Part shown: piece after piece, positions 1 to 20,270 of the stretch
Layout: every line of letters starts with the position of its first letter
Position numbering within the stretch: position 1 is the first letter of the stretch
DNA from: an uncultured delta proteobacterium
GTDB taxonomy: Bacteria > Desulfobacterota > Desulfobacteria > Desulfobacterales > Desulfosalsimonadaceae
Assembly (NCBI GenBank): GCA_963826785.1
Contig: CAWGYD010000001.1
Location: forward strand, 64,001 to 128,000
Length of the DNA: 64,000 nt
Reading direction: 5' to 3'
Position numbers and translations under genes: made by a program
The notes under the pieces: generated by a model
What the model saw: the letters and a program-made list of their open reading frames with translations, nothing else
Database searches by the model: none
What the model was told of the DNA's origin: nothing

Positions 1-2738
1 TTGCGGGAGGGGGCCAGGGTGCTGCCGGCCGCGCAGGCCGCGGCGCTGGCCTCGGTGATGGATGTCGGGATGTCCTTGGGCCCCTGGAAAATGCCGCAGG
101 CGAATACGCCCGGGCGCGATGTATTCACCGGAGTGAAGGGATGGGTCTTGGCAAAGCGGTAATGGTTCAGATCGACATGGAGCCGGTTGGCCATTTCAAC
201 GGTTTCGGGCGGGACCTGCAGGCCAACGGACAGCACCACCATGTCGAAATCCTCCATCTGCAGCTCGCCGGCTTCATCCACGTACCGCAGCCGCAGGTTG
301 TCGTTTTCGATCACGTCAATGGTGTGAATCCGCGCTTTTTCAAACCGGACGCCGGACTGTTCTTTGGCCCGCAGGTAATATTTTTCATAATCCTTGCCGA
401 AGGTCCGGATGTCCATGTTGAAGATCACCGTGTCCAGACCGTGATCCACGTGCGCCTTGGCGATCATGGCCTCCTTGATGGCATACATGCAGCACACTGA
501 CGAACAGTAGCCGTTTCCGCACCGGTTGGTGTCCCGGGAGCCCACACACTGGAGCCAGGCGATCCGCTTGGGCTCGGTATGGTCCGAGGGCCGCACCAGG
601 TGGCCCATGGTGGGGCCGGAAGCGGACAATATCCGCTCGAACTGGGCGCTGGTCAGCACATTGGCGGCCGACAGGTACTTGTAGGTGTCCTCCAGCACGG
701 CGGGGTCGTAGGTTTCATTTCCGGGGCAGAGAATTACCGATCCGACGGGCAGGTCACGCTCCATCACCGTCTGTTCATGATCGACGGCGCCGGCCAGGCA
801 GGCTTTCACACACTGGTAACATTCGGAGCAGATGCCGCATTTCAGACAGCGATCGGCCTCGGACTTGGCCTCTTCCTCGTTGTACCCATAGGAGACCTCC
901 AGGAAATTGCATTCCCGGGCCTCGGGGTTCAGGCACCGGACCGGCACCCGGTCCTTGTGGGGTTCGCCCAGGGCATCCGGCTTTTCAAAGACCCAGTCCT
1001 TGTCCCGGCCTTCCCTGAGGTCCAGCCCATTGATGTAGCGGTGGATGCTTTCGGCCGCGGCTTTTCCAGAAGACACGGCATCCACCACCGACTTGGGCCC
1101 ATAGAAGGCGTCGCCGCCGGCAAACACCCATTCAAGCGAGGTCTGCAGGGTCTGCGGGTCCGCATCCAGCCCGCCCACCCGGGTCAAGGGGACGTTCTGG
1201 CCTTCAAAGTCGGAAGTGTGGGTCCCCTGTCCGATGGCGATGATCACGGTGTCCCCGAAAAAAGCCTGGCAGGCCGATTCATCGAATTGAGGGGAAAACC
1301 GCCCTTCTTCGTTGAACACGGCGGTGCAGGTCTTGAACTCGATGCCGGAAACCTTTTTGTTGTCGTTGATGAAAAAGGACTTGGGCCCGAACGAGTTGAC
1401 GATGTCGATGTCGCCTTCCAGCGCCTCTTCTATTTCATGTTCCCATGCCGGCATCTCCTCGCGCTTTTCCAGGCAGAGCATGGTCACATTTTCCGCCCCC
1501 TTGCGCTTGGCGGTCAGGGCCACGTCGATGGCCACGTTCCCGCCGCCGATCACCAGCACGTCTTTGCCGATGGAAACGTCTTTGCCCATTGCCGCGTCCC
1601 GGAGGAAATCCACCCCCTGGAGCACGCCCTCGGCATCTTCGTTCTCCACGCCGAGCTTCCGGCCGCTGTGCAGACCGATGGCCATGAAGACGGCGGCATA
1701 GCCGTCCGCCTTGAGGCTGTCGAAGGTGACATCCTGGCCGAAGGTGACCCCCGTCTGGATCTCTACCCCCATCTCCTCGATGGCCCTGATTTCATTTTTC
1801 AGGATGTCCCGGGGGAGCCGGTATTCAGGGATGCCCACGGCCATCATACCGCCGGCCACGGGCAGTTTTTCAAAAATGGTGACCCCGTATCCCCGCCTGG
1901 CCAGGCTATAGGCGGCCGCCAGGCCCGCAGGACCGGACCCGATCACGGCCACCTTTTCGGCGCGTTTTTCCTCGGGCACGGCGGGCATGAATGTTTCGCC
2001 CTGTTCGTTTTCCCAGTCCGCCAGGAAGCGGTGAAGTTCCCGGATAGCCAGCGGCTGATCGTAATCGCCCCGGGTGCAGACCCCTTCGCAGGGATGATGG
2101 CAGACCCGGCCGCAGACGCCGGGGAAGGGGTGCTCTTCCCGGAACAGTTCCACGGCCTCCTTGTATTTTCCCTGGTTGATCAGGGCGATATAGCCCTGGA
2201 TGCTGACGTGTGCGGGGCAGGTGGCCTTGCAGGGGGCGGTCCCGCGCTTGCTGATGGCATAGGCCCCCGGAATGGCCTGGGCGTATTTCTTGTAGGCGGC
2301 TTTCCGGCTGCCCATCCCCTTGTCCTGTTCGCTGGGAACCTCGATGGGGCACACCTTGGCGCACTCGCCGCAGGAGGTGCATTTGGAAAGGTCGATATAA
2401 CGGGGTTCCTGGCGGATATGGGCCTTGAAGTTGCCCGGTTCGCCGTCAAGCGTGAGCAGTTCGGTGTTGGTTAAAAGCTCGATATTCAGATGCCGGCCGA
2501 CCTCGACCAGTTTGGGCGAGATGACTCACATGGCGCAGTCGTTGGTGGGAAAGGTCTTGTCCAGCTGGGACATGATGCCGCCGATGGCGGATGTTTTTTC
2601 CACCAGGTATACATAATATCCGGAATTGGCCAGGTCGATGGCCGACTGCATCCCGGAGATGCCTGCGCCGACCACCATGACGGACCCCACCGGCTGGCTG
2701 CGTTCAGGGGTTTTCCCGGATTCTTTTGCCTGTTCCAT
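1..2738 (-). CDS. HdrA/HdrL-like heterodisulfide-reductase-type flavoprotein with inserted GltD-like NAD(P)H module; probable selenoprotein (in-frame TGA 2526-2528); runs off the window
   Basis: ATG 2738 with [19 protein letters not shown]...[28 protein letters not shown] continues in frame. Later motifs: [20 protein letters not shown]...[52 protein letters not shown]...[27 protein letters not shown]. Confidence 0.9.
2493..2510 (-). promoter_or_regulatory. Candidate bacterial SECIS hairpin of the HdrA/HdrL gene
   Basis: mRNA CUGGUCG-AGGU-CGGCCGG: 7-bp stem (two G-U pairs) with an AGGU loop, starting 16 nt after the UGA. Confidence 0.7.
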
Positions 2739-3209: not shown

Positions 3210-3239
3210 TTGACAGGGAATCGGGATTTTTTTTATAGT
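3210..3239 (+). promoter_or_regulatory. Sigma70-type promoter for the first surface-protein gene
   Basis: TTGACA (3210-3215), 18-nt spacer, TATAGT (3234-3239). Confidence 0.55.
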
Positions 3240-3297
3240 GCCAAAAAAGTCCCATTTTCTTTATCATGAGCACATACATCAAGCAGGAGAATGTCCC

Positions 3298-5763
3298 ATG
3301 AGCCAGAAAAGATTGAACAGATTCAAGCCATGTCTGATGGCCGGTGTCTTCACGGCCCTCTTTTTAATGTGCATTTCAGCGCCGCAGTCCGTCTATGGCT
3401 GAGGATCCAGCAATCTGACCGTGACTGTCAGTCCAGCAAACACCGGCCACGTCAAAGTCAATGGAACGGTTTATACGGGTTCATGCGGCTATAGCTCTGG
3501 TACCAAGCTAACCCTGGAGGGGGTTGCTTCCGAAAATTACAAGTTCGATCGGTGGGGCGGCGCCTTGAGCGGCAGCACCAATCCGACAACGCTTACTATG
3601 GATACCAGTAAAAGCGTTACTGCCTACTTCCGATTGAAGACCGAATCGGTCTCTCTGTCCGGTGCGAAAAACCTGATGGATACCCAAAAAGACCTGGTGG
3701 TTATCGATGTGAGGCCGGCCGCCGAATACAGCACCGCTCACATGTTGTGCGCCAGAAATTACATCTGGAATGCGGGGGCTAAAAATTTCACCACACCCCT
3801 GAATACGCTTAATTCCTTAAAATCTCAAAATATCCTGGTTTATGACCGCGATGGCACCAACAGCGACGATGCCGCCGACTATCTGGCCAACCAGGGTTTC
3901 AACTCGGTTTATTACATGACCAACGGTCTGGATGACTGGATGGCCGCGGGATACGAGACCTTTGCCACGGCCGCGGACAGCAGCATCTGCACCAGCCTTG
4001 CGCCCATGGCCTATGCCGGCACGGATGTGACGGTCAATGAAAATACCATGGTGACGTTGAGCGGTTCAGGGGCGGACCCGGACGGGGGTTCGGTACTTTT
4101 ATCTATTGGACCCAGGTGGAAGGGACCACCGTCGCCTTATCGAATCCCGCATCGGCAAAACCCACTTTTAGGGCCCCGGTACCATCCGGGGGAGATGACG
4201 AGTTGATTTTTCATCTCACGGTCAACCGATGACGAGGGCCAGAAAGATACGGACAGTGTCACCGTGAAGGTCTCCTGGATAAATGATCCGCCCACGGCGG
4301 TGGCAACGGCGGACAAAACCAATCCCCAGCCCGGGGACACGGTGACCCTTAACGGATTGGGATCTTCCGACCCGGAAAACGGGACCCTGACCTATAGTTG
4401 GGTGGCTACATCCGGTACTTTGATGATCAATCTATCAAACCCGAATTCAGCCAAACCTTCTTTTGTAGTGCCTCCGGGCACGTCTGCCGGCCGGTGGGTG
4501 GAATTTACGCTGACGGTAACCGACAACGGTGGCCCAAAGAGCGACATACAAAGTCAAAATCACGGTGGCCGGCAGTTCGAACCAGCCGCCGTCGGCCTGC
4601 GCGGGGGACAACAAGACGGTGGCCGAAGGAACCATGGTTCAGCTGGACGGCTCCTGCTCCACGGACCCGGATGACGGAATAAAGCAGTATACTTGGGCGC
4701 AGACCGGCGGGCCGTCGGTGTCGCTGTCTAACATTCATGCGGTTAAACCCACCTTTACCGCGCCGCAGGTAACCCAGAACACCGCCCTTAATTTCAAACT
4801 GACGGTTCAGGATAACGGCGGCCTGACCCACAGCAAACGGTTACGGTAACGGTCACGGACAGCGGCGGCACCTCCGGTACTCCCGCCCCCCCGAAAAATG
4901 TTTCCGCAACGGACAACACGCTTGCAGGCAGGGTTCGCATCGCCTGGGCAGCCTCATCAGGGGCTCAGTCATATGATGTCTACCGAGCAGACATGCCGGC
5001 CTGGACGGGGGCGGTGCTCAGCCGAATTGCTTCGTCGGTAACCGGGACCTCCTATGACGACATCACGGCAAAGTCCGGCAGCCTTTATTATTATTGGGTC
5101 AGGGCCCGAAATGCCAAGGGGATGAGTAAATTCAGCGCTTTTGACACCGGATTTTTTGGGGCCACCGGCAAATCGCCCGCCCGGCCGACTGAAGTCGAGG
5201 CCAGTGAAAACAGTAGTGCCAACAAGGTGACCATCACCTGGAAGGGGTCTGCCGAAGCCTTGGTATACGAGGTCTACAGAGCGGATATCCCGGTGTATCT
5301 GGGTGGAAAAATAAAAAAAATCGCCACCGTCAAGACGCTCACTTATGATGATGCCACCGCGGCCGCGGGCAATCGGTATTATTATTGGATTACCGCCCGC
5401 AATTCCTGGGGGATCAGTCATTACAGCCTTTTTGATACGGGATATTGTTGCGGGCCGGCCCAGTCGCCCCCCGATTCGCCTGCAGGCGTGACGGCCAGCA
5501 AGGGAACGGTAGCGGGCAAAGTCCATATTTCATGGAATGCCTCCGCCAAAACGACCGTTTATGAAATCTGGCGAGCCAACAAACCGGGCAGTCAGGGAGG
5601 CAGGCCGGTTCGCATCGGTAAGGTGGACAGCAATACCTTTTCATTCGATGATAATTTATTGTCCTGTAACGTAAATTATTTTTATTGGGTAACTGCCCGA
5701 AACCCATGGGGCGTGAGTCGTTATAGCAAGTATGCTACCGGGTACTGTGGTTCGCTGCCCTGA
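3298..5763 (+). CDS. Secreted multidomain protein A: signal peptide, in-frame TGA (putative Sec35), InlB-B-repeat-like domain, Asp-type rhodanese domain, 3 PKD/K319-like Ig repeats, 3 Fn3-like repeats; 4 apparent frameshifts
   Basis: AGGAG 8 nt before ATG 3298. MSQKRLNRFKPCLMAGVFTALFLMCISAPQSVYG-TGA(3400)-GSSNLTVTVSPANTG...YKFDRWGGALSGSTNP. Rhodanese VIDVR...LVYD...GLDDW; AG.D.TV.E...V.L.G repeats; YYYWV.ARN repeats. Frame changes near 4100, 4224, 4540 and 4835. Confidence 0.75.
3415..3431 (+). promoter_or_regulatory. Candidate SECIS hairpin, protein A
   Basis: CUGAC-CGUGACU-GUCAG beginning 13 nt after the UGA at 3400-3402. Confidence 0.6.
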
Positions 5764-5838
5764 TTAACCTTTGGTTAGGGCGCAGACAACCAGAAAATAA
5801 TTAATAATTGAATACAAACCGATCACTTTAGAGAGACA

Positions 5839-5876
5839 AATTCCCTGCGGGCACATGCACGCGGGGAATTTTTTTT
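5839..5876 (+). terminator. Rho-independent terminator
   Basis: AATTCCCTGCG...CGCGGGGAATT stem followed by a T run, downstream of the stop at 5763. Confidence 0.75.
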
Positions 5877-6202
5877 GCCGCATCAAAGGAAATCGGCGAA
5901 ACTTTCTTTCTGGCTTAAAAATTGCATCTTTATACCGCCTATAGTGGATGCGCTAAATCCCATTCATCGCAATTGAGCTGTCGGCTTCATTCAAGCAATT
6001 TGCGGGGGAATCGGGTTTTTTTTATTGACAAGTGCCTGCTACAGTGTGGCAGTATCACAAACTGATATGGTTGCAAATTTTGACAAGACCGTATTCAAAA
6101 GAGGACACTTTTATCATTGGCGCGGTAATCTGTTTGTTCTAACGGGATGAGCAGTTATCGCATTTATTGGTAATCTTATGTACCAGGAGACAGTAATTGA
6201 AG

Positions 6203-9200
6203 ATGTTTGCAAATTCCGCTTCACCTTTCCGTTTCGCTTTCAAGGCATGCTGCCTGATCATGTTCACAGTGACGGCCCTGACCCTCTCTATTCCTGCACC
6301 CGCAGGCGCCGGCTGAGGCGGCCTGGCGCTGACCGTGGATGTCAGCCCCGCAAGGGCCGGTAAAATCAAGATCACTTACATAGACAGCAACCTGGTCACA
6401 AAGGTCTTAATCCCGACCAGTTATCCATCCGAAACCTACACTTGTATCAATTATGGCAGCACGGTCATACTGGAGGCGACGCCCTCGTCAGGGTACCGCT
6501 TCGATCACTGGGGCGGATCCGTTACCGGCAGCACAAATCCGGTGAAATTCGTGCTCAAGGAAGCCAGAGAGATCACGGCCTATTTTACCGGAAGCGCAAC
6601 CACTTCAATTACGGCGAACGCCGGGCCCGACCAGAACGTCAGCGAGAACCAGCAGGTGACCCTCAATGGAACAGGGTCGACCGGAACCATTTCTCGCTAC
6701 AGCTGGACCCAGACAAGTGGTCCGACGGTGGCGCTTTCAGGTTCTACATCCAGCCGCCCCACCTTTACCGCACCCTATGTGCAGGAGGGCGGAGCAACCC
6801 TCACCTTTCGCCTGACGGTGAGCAACAACCTGGGCCAGACAGATACCGACAGCGTCAACGTGCATGTGGCCTGGCAGGATCAGCTGACCGCATCCGCCGG
6901 ACCCGACCAGAGCGTCAGCGGGGGGCAGCAGGTGACCCTCAATGGAACCGGATCGACCGGAACCATTGCCCGCTACAGCTGGACCCAGACAAGCGGCCCG
7001 ACCGTTGTTCTTTCGGGTTCCACATCCAGCCGCCCCACCTTTACCGCACCTTATGTGCAGGCAGCCGGGGCAACGCTTACTTTTCTGCTGACGGTGAGCG
7101 ACAATCTGGGCCATACAGACTCGGACAGTGTCAATGTGCGTGTCGCTTCGCAGAATCTGAACCTGGCGGCAGCGGCCGGACCCGATCAGTCCGTCGAATC
7201 CGGTGCAACCGTTGTCCTGGATGGATCAAACTCCTCGCCCCAGAGCGACATCGTCTCATATCAATGGGTGATGATCGACAACAACTTAAACCTTTCCGGC
7301 ATCGATCTGACCAGCAAGTGGGGAGAGGGAATGGTGTCTTTTCTGGCACCCGAGCAGAGCGGTTGGATTGAATTTGAACTGACTGTCAGCGGTGTGGACG
7401 GCAGCAGCGACAGCGACACGGTTGTGGTCACGATCACTCAAACCAGCGGCGGCAGCGGGCTCGCAGCGAATGCCGGATCGGACCAGGCCGCCCTCATCGG
7501 GACCATGGTCATGCTCGATGGATCCGGTTCCCAGGGGGACAACCTGCAATATCAGTGGCGTTAGATCCCCGAAGCCACGGTCACCTTGTCCGGGGGAAAT
7601 GAATGGACGGGGATTTCCCTGCAGAAAACCCCGACTTTTACCGCCCCTGAAACCGGGCAGCCGCAGCAAACGCTGACCTTTGAGCTGAAGGTGAAAGATA
7701 CGGTCAGCGGACAGACGAGCATCGATACCGTGGATATCCTGATCAACAGCCAGGCTTACGTGGACAGCAATGCATCGCCGACCGCAGATGCGGGTCCGGA
7801 TCTTCAAGTCGCCCCCGGTGCGGTGGTAAAGCTTGATGCAAGCGGTTCCACAGATCCCGAAAACAGGATCATCTCCTATCTCTGGACGGTCCAATCCGGT
7901 TCGGCTGCTATCCGGCTGTCGGATGACAAGGCAATCGACCCGGTCTTTACGGCGCCGGCTGCATCCGGTTCGGCTGAATTCAAGTTGACCGTCATCGATG
8001 ATGCCGGAAAAAGCGATACGGACATGGTGACGGTCGACTGGGCCAATCAACCGCCCTCCGCGAACGCGGGAACGGATCAGACAGTTACCGAAGGAAGCAT
8101 GGTGACCATGGACGGTTCGGGTTCCTCGGATATCGATGACGGCATCGTCTCCTATGAATGGGTCCAGACAGGGGGCCTTTCCGTCGCGCTCACGGGTAAA
8201 GACACCGCCCAACCCACTTTCAGTGCGCCGATGATCACCACCGGGCAAACGGCGGCATTGTCCTTCCGCCTGACGGTTAAAGACCGCCTCGGACAGTCGG
8301 ATACGGACCAGGTGATTGTCACCGTCACCCGGGACGGTATGCCGCCAATCGCAGATGCGGGTCCGGACCGCACGGTCAACGAAGGCGATGTCATTGAGCT
8401 TGACGGGACGGAATCCATGGATCCGGACGGAAATATCGTCAGCTATCAATGGAAACAGGTTCACGGCCCGGTGGCCGGGATTTCAGACGAAACATCCGCA
8501 AAAGCCTCCTTTATCGCCAGGCGGTCAGGGTGGACCAGCTACCGCTGACCTTTGATTTGACGGTAGTGGACAACGAGGGACTGAGTTCTTCAGACCGGGT
8601 GATCATCACCATTGTCAATGTGGGGGAATTGCCCGTGGCGAATGCCGGGGAGGACCAGGCGGTTTACGAGCGTAAAACCGTCACCCTGGACGCATCCCGG
8701 TCAAAAGACAGGGACGGCCTCATCGAGCGGTATAAATGGAGCCAGATCACCGGTCCCACCGTCGTCTTTTCGGATTCCGAGGCCATGCAGCCCACCTTTG
8801 ACGCTCCCATCATCGGGGAAAATCCGGTGGATCTCGAATTCCAGCTCATGGTCGAGGACAACGACGGACTCAAAGGATTCGACCGGGTGAAGATCACCGT
8901 GAACCCGACCACCCAGGCCCCTGTGGCCGATGCAGGCCCGGATCAGACCGTGAAAGAAGGGGAAACAGTGGTCCTCGACGGGTCGGGATCTTCGGATCCG
9001 GATGACGGGATTATCAGTTATAAATGGACCCAGGCGGCCGGTTCGGTCACGGTTGAACTTTCCGACGAAACCGCCCCGCAGCCGACATTTGAGGCCCCGA
9101 AAATTAGCGGCGAAGACGTTGCGCTGAGCTTCAAGCTGGTGGCAGAGGATTTCAGCGGTCAGCAGGGGGTGGATACGTGTGGTCACCGTCACCGATAAAT

Positions 9201-9250
9201 CCGATGGCGGAGGCGGCGGCGGATGCTTCATCTCGACTTTGATGGAGTAA
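6203..9250 (+). CDS. Secreted multidomain protein B: signal peptide, in-frame TGA (putative Sec), InlB-B-repeat-like domain, about 9 PKD/K319-like Ig repeats, C-terminal GGGGGG-CFI tail; internal TAG and 2 apparent frameshifts
   Basis: AGGAG 6185-6189; start is ATG 6203 or TTG 6197. MFANSASPFRFAFKACCLIMFTVTALTLSIPAPAGAG-TGA(6314)-GGLALTVDVSPARAG...YRFDHWGGSVTGSTNP. Repeated ANAGPDQ.V...V.LDGS units. In-frame TAG 7562-7564; frame changes near 8518 and 9178; ends DKSDGGGGGGCFISTLME-TAA. Confidence 0.75.
6328..6346 (+). promoter_or_regulatory. Candidate SECIS hairpin, protein B
   Basis: GCUGAC-CGUGGAU-GUCAGC; the CUGAC arm starts 13 nt after the UGA at 6314-6316, the same spacing as in protein A. 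Confidence 0.6.
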
Positions 9251-9290
9251 ATGAAGTTTAGCCGCTTGGTCTTTTATTCATGATGATCTG

Positions 9291-9333
9291 AGCGTCCCTG
9301 CCGGGAAGAACTTCCGGCAGGGACGCTTTTTTT
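9291..9333 (+). terminator. Rho-independent terminator between convergent genes
   Basis: AGCGTCCCTGCCGG...CCGGCAGGGACGCT followed by a T run. Confidence 0.8.
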
Positions 9334-18623: not shown

Positions 18624-18705
18624 TCTCTCGCAAAGCGCGCAGGGGGCGGTCAGGAAATATTTTTTCAATTTCTTTCTTTGCGGTCCTTTGCGCCCTGGTG
18701 AGAGA
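18624..18705. repeat. REP-like imperfect palindrome
   Basis: TCTCTCGCAAAGCGCGCAGGGG ... CTTTGCGGTCCTTTGCGCCCTGGTGAGAGA, with complementary ends. Confidence 0.45.
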
Positions 18706-18784
18706 ACTCGAATACCGGGTGAAAATAGAAACAGTCAGGTTTCCGGATGCTTTGCCGAAAACCTTCAATATACAGGAGATGCTC

Positions 18785-20270
18785 ATGCAATGGGAATGTA
18801 ATATGCCAAAAATGGAGATCATGAACCATACCGTCCAGGAGACGCCCAGTTACCGTGTCCTGACGGAGGATCAGATCGAACAGATATATTTCGCCGCACT
18901 TGAAGTGCTGGAGCGGGTCGGCTCCCGGGTGCACCAGGAAGAGGCACTGGAACTGTTCCGCAGCAGCGAGGCCGTTGTCGGCGACGACAAGCGGGTCCGG
19001 GTGCCGGTCTCCCTGGTGGAGCGGGCTTTAAAGACATATCCCCGGAAGATCACCCTCAAGGGGCGAAACGGCGTCCGGTCCATGGCCCTGCAGAAGGACC
19101 ATGTCTATTTCGGCACCGGCTCCGATTTGCCCTTTACCTATGACCGCAAGACCGGCGAACGCCGCCGAACCCTGTACAGCGACATTGTCAACGCGGCCCG
19201 GATCGTGGATGCGCTGCCCAATTACGATTTTTTCATGTCCCACGGCATCGTGGGCGATGCGCCCAATCCCCTGACCTATGACCGGCACCAGTTCATGGCC
19301 ATGCTGGAGGGGTGCACCAAACCGATGGTGCTCACCAGCGTGGACGGCGAAGGGCTTAAAGATCTGTGGAAAATGGCCTGCCTGGTGCAGGGGGGCGAGG
19401 CGGAATTTCGGTTAAATCCCATGTTCGTGGCCTACATCGAGCCGATCTCACCGCTGACAAATGACCGCACTGCGGTGGAAAAACTGTCTGTTTGCCGCGG
19501 AAAAGGGGATCCCGGCCATGTACACGCCGTGTCCGTCCTCCGGCGCCACCGCGCCGGCCACCATTGCGGGCATGCTGGTCCAGTCCCTGGCCGAAACCCT
19601 GCTGGCCGTGGCGCTGTGCTATCTCAAGAAACCGGGCATGCCGCTGGTCATGGGGGGCGTGACCACCGTCATGGACATGCGCACCACCACCTATTCCTAC
19701 GGCGCCCCGGAACTCTCCCTGGCCTCGGCCGCCAACACGGACATTTCCAAGTGGCTGGGACTGCCCATGTTCTCCACCGGCGGATGCACCGATGCCAAGG
19801 TGCTGGACGAGCAGGCCGCCATCGAGTGCACCATCAGCCTGCTCAATGCCTACATGTCCGGCGCCAACCTGGTCCATGACGTGGGATACATCGATTCGGG
19901 GGTAAACGCCTCTCTGGAGAGCCTGGTCATGAACGAGGAGATCATCCGCATGGTCCGACAGGTCGGAAAAGGGATCAAGACCGATGAGGCCCACATGGCC
20001 TTAAACATCATCGATGAAGTGGGCCCCGGCGGCGAATACGTCACCCACGACCATACCTATGAACACTGGAAGGAATGGTTCAAGCCGCAGCTCATCGACC
20101 GTTCGGATTGGGAAACCTGGAATGCGGAAGGGAAAAAAACCATGCTGGACCGGGTCAATGAGGAGACTGAAAAGCTGCTCAACACCTATCAGCCAAAGCC
20201 CCTGGATGAAAAACTGGCCCAGGAGGTTCGGGCGGTTGTTGAAGACGCGGACCGGCGGCATTCCCATTAA
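18785..20270 (+). CDS. MttB-superfamily (trimethylamine-type) methyltransferase 1, non-pyrrolysine; +1 frameshift near 19487
   Basis: IYFAALEVLERVG, FGTGSD, EPISPL, SGATAPATIAG, YGAPE, STGGCTDAK. Removing one T in AAACTGTCTGTTT restores EKLLFAAEKG. Confidence 0.88.

Follow-up and report, generated by a model that had tools for sequence, protein, structure and literature searches.

What does an in-frame TGA mean when two neighboring genes carry it in the same place? The window studied here is a stretch of 64,000 nucleotides from an uncultured delta proteobacterium of the family Desulfosalsimonadaceae (assembly GCA_963826785.1, contig CAWGYD010000001.1, positions 64,001 to 128,000), and it contains two such genes, A and B, each interrupted by a TGA directly behind a signal peptide. 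From comparisons of related genes, we conclude that this UGA is very probably read as selenocysteine (Sec). Genes A and B would then belong to a real selenoprotein family of an unusual and apparently undescribed type, in which the recoding mechanism is known and the type of protein is new. A preliminary description of the window had proposed that they represent a new selenoprotein family whose members are exported and carry Sec at the mature N-terminus; the proposal is borne out by a column that holds TGA or Cys, by a conserved hairpin of the SECIS (selenocysteine insertion sequence) type, and by Sec genes in the carrier genomes.

Gene A (3298..5763; all features are on the forward strand unless noted) starts at ATG 3298, with AGGAGA 7 nt upstream of the start, and reaches its in-frame TGA, the predicted Sec35, at 3400..3402 (codon 35). 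The 34 residues before it (3298..3399) look like a signal peptide: they have a basic n-region, a hydrophobic core, a proline, and small residues at -3 and -1, and they end in V-Y-G. Gene B (6197..9250) has its in-frame TGA, also a predicted Sec, at 6314..6316, which is codon 38 from ATG 6203 or codon 40 from TTG 6197, and AGGAGA at 6184-6189. The TGA positions originally given (3400 and 6314) are thus both exact, and a ribosome binding site and a signal-peptide-like first segment precede each. A gap-free alignment of A and B past the stop had also been claimed; this holds for the 19 residues that were quoted, and further on there is an insertion of about 12-15 residues in B. An InlB-B-repeat-like domain with one Cys does follow each stop, as described: both proteins match PF18998 (divergent InlB B-repeat) at 34.4 bits (A) and 36.1 bits (B), versus a Pfam gathering cut-off of 23.6. 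The domain spans 3403..3636 in A, with its single Cys63 at 3484-3486, and 6317..6595 in B, with its single Cys at 6443-6445. Genes A and B are the sole copies of the family in their genome.

We compared domain A to 61 related genomes and found 35 matches in 19 genomes, of which 19 matches contain exactly one TGA. All 19 read as signal peptide, TGA, and domain, with the TGA at codon 35-38. Eleven of the 16 matches without a TGA were read; ten of them lie at internal repeats, and the eleventh is truncated where its contig ends. This recurrence of the same single TGA argues against chance or a sequencing error; the preliminary description had likewise thought two independent errors unlikely. A profile search of 401 genomes from the host's order gave 30 rows with one TGA. 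After parsing, we had 43 distinct genes (including A and B) from 26 genomes and eight families of the order, and each has one in-frame TGA directly behind the signal peptide. A genome can have up to five or six genes of the family. The same order-wide search turned up several proteins with an ordinary repeat directly after the signal peptide and neither Sec nor hairpin, as well as two tandem paralogues with Cys at about the Sec position. In two genomes, tandem arrays contain two or three Sec genes (L183 in G103 and L067 in G208), and elsewhere in both genomes, a Cys paralogue directly follows a Sec gene.

We also searched GTDB with a DNA pattern whose third base at the Sec codon was left open (TGN). 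The 50 loci found had 36 TGA, 9 TGG, 4 TGC, and 1 TGT. Thirty-four of the TGA loci are family members, two of the TGC loci are the Cys of a U-C dipeptide (U being Sec), and the other 14 are unrelated, so no family member among these 50 loci has TGG at the Sec column. A scan of Joint Genome Institute (JGI) metagenomes with the DNA pattern gave 21 matches, of which 20 have TGA; all 20 are family members, with some duplicates. Among the family members that we read, the codon at the aligned column is TGA or Cys and never Trp or variable. The carriers with names are Desulfobacterales, Syntrophales/Syntrophaceae, and deltaproteobacterial metagenome-assembled genomes, and the named records of the family found here are all metagenome-assembled genomes. 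The family is rare outside the host's order, where both the pattern and the profile found one member (G545) among 400 genomes of the phylum; in the profile search, 26 of the 45 matches outside the host's own genome were read. Scanning the host genome for TGA with a loose hairpin gave 121 matches, in which we recognized no real gene beyond A and B. A profile search of protein representatives was dominated by tandem-repeat proteins and was uninformative. In public records, Sec members are shortened and start inside the first strand. Because these gene calls drop the signal peptide and the Sec, the proteins seem to belong in the cytoplasm and the family goes unseen.

Several other sources of an in-frame TGA were considered and rejected. 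A methylation-linked error of long reads at GCTGAGG is ruled out by the TGA being present in many independent assemblies and in other contexts. An alternative genetic code, with UGA as Trp or Gly, does not fit the host genome, where TGA ends 392 of the 821 frames of at least 500 codons and Trp is encoded by TGG. A 96-nt tRNA-Trp(CCA) call (G000:C1:229358-229453) does not convince as a recoding tRNA; it has poor stems and is probably false.

The region behind the UGA appears to be constrained at the level of RNA. The 43 genes described above were found by homology, so they are an independent test of the hairpin; a set of 53 members that was picked on TGA plus hairpin is descriptive only, which lessens its weight in favor of our reading. 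The first strand of the domain (L-T-V-x-V-S) is encoded almost invariantly in the set of 43: Leu is CTG in 41/43, Thr is ACC in 42/42, and the two Val are GTG in 43/43 and GTC in 42/42. In the downstream part of such genes, the same codons make up 41% (CTG), 44% (ACC), 29% (GTG), and 31% (GTC). A Pro codon just outside the hairpin is unconstrained (17/10/7/6), and 23 first strands without Sec have mixed codons. Across the 53 sequences, 98.7% of 318 cells are base paired, and sliding the partners reduces this to 15-52%. At three of the six stem pairs, both partners vary, in six cells altogether. The loop is 7 nt long, with G as its second base, the stem has 5-6 bp, and the loop starts 17 nt past the UGA in 43/53 and 20-26 nt past it in the rest. 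The published model of the bacterial SECIS has a loop of 3-9 nt with a G as its first or second base, 16-37 nt past the UGA, a stem of at least 4 bp, and a minimum free energy of at most -7.5 kcal/mol (PMC13188914). The family's hairpin fits this model in spacing, loop, and stem. As for energy, 52 of the 53 reach -7.5 kcal/mol and gene A misses it by 0.1: hairpin A (3415..3431; a stem of 5 bp and a loop of 7 nt that begins 17 nt past the UGA and has G as its second base) has -7.4 kcal/mol with the hairpin enforced, which is the weakest of the 53. Hairpin B (6328..6346), at -21.6 kcal/mol, has an upper stem of 6 bp that continues into a longer lower one. Two Cys paralogues that we read at the DNA level depart from the consensus sequence of the hairpin, and one of them can still form a weak stem. 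The near-invariant 19-nt hairpin could serve as a clean model SECIS for this phylum.

Do the carriers have the machinery to insert Sec? We found selA in 23 of the 26 carrier genomes; the other three have selD, and two of those have selB. Because Sec use is common in the host's order and the count has no control group, selA in the carriers shows compatibility only. Of the four Sec genes named in the preliminary description, two were recovered from the host genome (87.8% complete): the gene for tRNA-Sec (selC) is present, selA is split in two frames (C3:45278-46644), and neither selB nor selD was found in this assembly, either by profile or by tblastn with the proteins of relatives. The host genome contains five other TGAs of the Sec type, in two FdhA and three HdrA genes, which are kept despite selB and selD not being found. 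The HdrA-like neighbor had been put forward as a Sec gene, and it does have its own in-frame TGA at 2528-2526 (2526..2528 on the reverse strand); it is oriented divergently and is context from outside the family. In genome G013, besides a normal selB, there is a second and weaker full-length SelB-like match (G013:C108:97974-99851; 250 bits, just above the cut-off).

The copies in the window are damaged. By eye, from three-frame translations, the reading frame of gene A shifts four times (near 4100, 4225, 4545, and 4840), and gene B is broken by TAG at 7562 and by shifts of frame near 8530 and 9175. This amounts to six frameshifts and one TAG in 5.5 kb, versus 1 frameshift in 50 kb and about 4 in 74 kb of control genes. 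The orthologue of gene A in G013 is a single open frame, with 767 amino acids from the first GTG past the TGA. A local consensus error and real decay are both possible explanations for the breaks in the window copies, and the result for the family is independent of them.

Given Sec insertion, what would the selenium do? The number of Cys residues is a clue. In each of the 53 Sec domains there is a single Cys. It lies within three residues of Sec in 5, in the loop before strand 3 in 33, after strand 4 in 4, in the turn before the last strand in 10, and elsewhere in 1; the offsets from Sec are 1-3, 28-45, 49, 59-69, and 71-74. Among 63 ordinary repeats, 8 have no Cys, 7 have one, 39 have two, 6 have three, and 3 have four, and the seven with one Cys include a Cys paralogue and a cut family member. 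A search with a Cys paralogue yielded 15 proteins, 8 of which have Cys behind the signal peptide. Three of these 8 have CxC, two have a loop Cys as well, one has a second Cys elsewhere, and two have no partner. In a tree built with Sec and Cys masked, nine changes of the Cys site are needed (the minimum is four), and loop and strand-4 types occur together in a starred clade that comes from two genomes. A bond between Sec and Cys is, in our view, the best explanation of the one-Cys rule, as judged from sequence, and the idea of a selenium-sulfur bond gains indirect support from this rule. In five of the 53 members (U-C, UxC, or UxxC), the Cys adjoins Sec, so the bond cannot tie the N-terminal end to the fold. 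In four loci (L049, L055, L056, and L057), tandem repeats alternate a Cys in the turn between strands 3 and 4 with a Cys in the N-terminal loop of the next repeat, which suggests bonds between repeats. Sec may replace the missing upstream Cys partner in the first domain.

An AlphaFold model built from the 53 sequences is all-beta, with a predicted local distance difference test (pLDDT) score of 95, a predicted template modeling (pTM) score of 0.82, and bridges at residues 5 and 32. (Folding a single sequence gave a pLDDT of 45 and was unusable.) From the order of strands in this model, 52 of the 53 Cys sites would lie at the same end of the domain as the N-terminus. The best structural matches are pilin/CnaB-like sandwiches, with Z of 5-6 and root mean square deviations of 2.3-2.8 over 67-76 residues; no Foldseek match reached an E value of 0.001 and no VIA-align match reached Z of 8. 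These likenesses give no indication of function. A solved InlB B-repeat is not among the structural matches listed, and its absence there does not exclude a likeness.

All 53 members have a hydrophobic core that ends 5-18 residues before Sec. As a rule of sequence only, a loose (-3,-1) rule for cleavage places Sec at +1 or +2 in 52/53, and a strict A-x-A fits 28/53. We also considered that Sec might take the place of the lipobox Cys of a lipoprotein, and rejected this: only 1/53 is lipobox-like, and the core stops short of Sec. Behind the Sec domain are bodies of PKD, FN3, SdrD-B, a DUF5719-like or unassigned region of about 410 amino acids, choice-of-anchor U, or a rhodanese-like domain (the scans for body domains covered 33 and 24 of 49 bodies). 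In three loci (L008:1852-3090, L062, and L098), the body of about 410 amino acids has no match in Pfam or NCBIfam, or weak DUF5719 in relatives. By pattern, a CFI-box is at the C-terminus of 16 of the 38 complete members. Three members consist of only the signal peptide, the Sec domain, an acidic linker, and the CFI-box. Since these minimal members are reduced to the Sec domain and the CFI-box, the Sec domain is the functional unit.

We propose the following mechanism. The hairpin 17-26 nt downstream of the UGA would direct insertion of Sec. On export, signal peptidase I would cleave so that the mature chain has Sec at +1 or +2, as suggested by the residues ahead of it. Sec would thereby start a small all-beta domain at the far end of a stalk (PKD, FN3, SdrD-B, or other), which often ends with a CFI-box. 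Sec would then pair with the one Cys of its domain as a selenosulfide; if Sec is inserted, this bond is likely, going by the Cys counts. Finally, the pair would act as a reactive exchange site, with Sec and a resolving Cys that cycle with extracellular thiols, sulfide, or polysulfide, or that swap onto a partner Cys. Such a site would differ both from the tuned active site of an enzyme and from a plain structural staple. We favor an exchange site for two reasons: a Cys that adjoins Sec, as in five members, has nothing to staple, and the other residues nearby are not fixed. The four steps together (Sec insertion, export, a Sec-Cys bond, and a redox-exchange tip on a surface stalk) have in our view an even chance of being right.

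One objection is that there is no Sec at all: the UGA would be a true stop, an error, or a codon for another residue (Trp, Gly, or Cys), and the body would start at a GTG in the first strand. Public gene calls do begin at that GTG (P0153-P0155), assembly errors are many in these genes, and selB and selD were not found. We nevertheless consider this very unlikely, given the identical TGA in 26 genomes, the frequent use of TGA as a stop with TGG for Trp, the upstream frame that encodes a signal peptide with a ribosome binding site in every case read, the RNA-level constraint on the hairpin, and the odd Cys count. If Sec is inserted, the selenium-sulfur bond might do no more than staple the structure, staying closed because the surroundings are sulfidic and reducing or in spite of it. 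This would account for the pairs of Cys in most ordinary repeats (39/63), for the two Cys versions (P0161 and P0162) that retain an N-terminal and a loop Cys, and for a partner Cys whose site wanders, unlike that of an active site. It does not account for the five U-C, UxC, and UxxC members, and other Cys pairs of the same proteins stay sulfur. Also, there are N-terminal repeats without Sec (L044, L048, L053, L075, and L078). A mere staple seems unlikely to us.

Another proposal is that the cell surface offers a binding site for a soft metal (Hg, Cu, or Ni), made up of Sec, Cys, and the free N-terminal amine. The predicted place of Sec, at +1 or +2 of the mature chain, would suit this, and C-U motifs occur in HgcA and SAO proteins (10.1101/2022.07.06.499078). 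However, there is no conserved His or third ligand, the geometry varies, and metal transport neighbors do not recur, which makes metal binding rather improbable. Or the UGA could gate expression according to selenium supply: when selenium is lacking, translation would yield just a harmless signal peptide, and the Cys would merely cap the selenol. The UGA is always right behind the signal peptide, which is the cheapest point to abort, and the module precedes unrelated bodies. But a gate leaves unexplained why the smallest members retain the Sec domain alone and why there are Cys paralogues beside Sec genes, and we rate it as quite improbable. A more speculative version of the exchange site is a selenium-based covalent hook, in which the selenosulfide at the tip swaps onto a partner's free Cys, or else onto surfaces of sulfur or metal sulfide. 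The partner might be another cell, or it might be the Cys in the C-terminal CFI-box of the next subunit, which would give head-to-tail fibers. We rate the hook, with such partners, as improbable. If it is real, thioester adhesins would have their selenium counterpart in it, and Sec would have a use that lies outside enzyme catalysis.

A number of observations weigh against a Sec-Cys exchange site at the tip of a surface stalk, or against parts of it. We found no conserved catalytic residues in the Sec domain. Two of the 8 Cys versions manage without a second Cys, and in one Sec member (L128, offset 49), the Cys is at the opposite end of the domain; the nearness of Sec and Cys elsewhere is read from strand order in the model. 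The tree was built from few columns and many of its forks are open. The compensatory changes in the hairpin are from few sequences (six cells), and the relatives are not independent. No conserved reductase neighbor was found, as neighbors differ between families. Lastly, breaks are far more frequent in the window copies than in control genes, and the host lineage may be losing the trait, given its split selA and the selB and selD that were not found, although its HdrA and FdhA genes retain their TGAs.

The family resembles other selenoproteins that have a SECIS in the coding region, such as FdhA, HdrA, and SelD of the same organisms, in the UGA, in the downstream hairpin with a G near the start of the loop, and in having Cys homologs. 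It differs from them in lacking an enzyme fold, in having Sec where the mature chain of an exported stalk protein is predicted to begin, and in a partner Cys at many positions. By score, the domain past the UGA is a member of PF18998, and the PKD and FN3 stalks are like those of PF18998 surface proteins, but in ordinary PF18998 repeats Sec is absent, the codons of the first strand are free, and the number of Cys is mostly even. DUF1573 proteins are Ig-like. Sec in a protein that is predicted to leave the cytoplasm would be shared with MccSep/ExtKL, the GSU2204 family, SaoB, and DUF1573 (UGC). Unlike these proteins, the family has no heme motifs, barrel, or binding-protein fold, and there was no match to these models in NCBIfam or Pfam. 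(MccSep reduces polysulfide, according to PMC13510729.) In the comparison with CnaB-type pilin and thioester-adhesin stalk domains, the best matches of the model are pilin/CnaB-like at Z of 5-6, where a Z below 8 may mean only a common arrangement. A reactive bond at the tip of a stalk is the design of thioester adhesins. Here, though, no Cys-Gln thioester or isopeptide residues are conserved, and the hosts are Gram-negative. The CFI-box (NF041763) is shared by gene B and the 16 complete members, yet proteins that have no Sec can end in it too, and it is missing from many Sec members. Six places in the host genome have CFI-box matches at or over the cut-off, and only that of gene B follows a Sec domain.

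The family is absent from the 119 entries of a recent inventory of prokaryotic selenoproteins (Table 1 of PMC13188914, 2026). None of the selenoprotein models in NCBIfam 20 matched the N-terminal regions of 19 members at E values up to 1; the seleno models for rhodanese match only the rhodanese-like domain, far below the cut-off. NF049953 (GUxG) had hits in 0/5 genomes, in a search without a positive control. Neither PKD nor InlB is mentioned in the available parts of PMC13188914, PMC13326102 (with its one supplement), PMC12013277, PMC13745706, and 10.1101/2022.07.06.499078, nor is PKD in that of PMC1976440. We found no description of the family in the literature searched, which did not extend to subscription papers or to Sec annotations in RefSeq. 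Catalogued bacterial selenoproteins are mostly redox enzymes or have fixed redox motifs; here, Sec would be on a non-enzymatic surface domain, with a partner Cys that moves around the fold. The hosts of this multi-copy family are sediment sulfate reducers and syntrophs, and the 85-residue domain is small enough for a direct test of selenium versus sulfur outside the cell.

The remainder of gene A encodes a rhodanese-like domain (3646..3957; PF00581, 46.4 bits), three PKD repeats, and, closing the gene, three FN3 repeats (4880..5760; PF00041). Gene B continues with nine PKD repeats (counted by eye) and ends with a CFI-box, a putative sorting motif (9203..9244; NF041763, 17.9 bits versus a cut-off of 15.9); gene A has no CFI-box. 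The original label of Ig-repeat proteins thus leaves out the rhodanese-like domain and FN3 repeats of gene A. In the alignment, Asp replaces the catalytic Cys of the rhodanese-like domain of gene A. Among 16 complete rows for this exported domain, the catalytic position is Asp in 15, Gly in 1, and Cys in none (some rhodanese-bearing members, such as L039 and L114, were missed by the pattern and are outside the 16 rows). Without a catalytic Cys in the active loop of any of these rows, we rejected an identity as rhodanese sulfurtransferases. The rhodanese-like domain, with two other conserved Cys, is present in at least 17 of the 53 members.

In the host's family, Sec genes sit between a large HdrA and genes that we take to be ApbE, MobB, and MetK. 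Neighboring genes are unrelated in other families. A functional link to the ApbE or HdrA neighbors was rejected, as the synteny is confined to one family. Upstream of gene A is a candidate sigma-70-like promoter (3210..3239; TTGACA-18-TATAGT, 11/12, the best of 13 sites, as a consensus match only), and past gene B is a hairpin like an intrinsic terminator (9290..9328; 17 pairs and a T run). Near-identical copies of GGGAATCGGG plus a T run, at 3217-3242 and 6004-6036, overlap the promoter-like sites of A and B. The pattern for this stretch matches none of the other 51 genes. It may be left over from a duplication, or it may act as an operator common to both genes. Farther along the window, at 18698-20270, two overlapping frames resemble one frameshifted methyltransferase gene, presumably MttB-like, beside a corrinoid protein.

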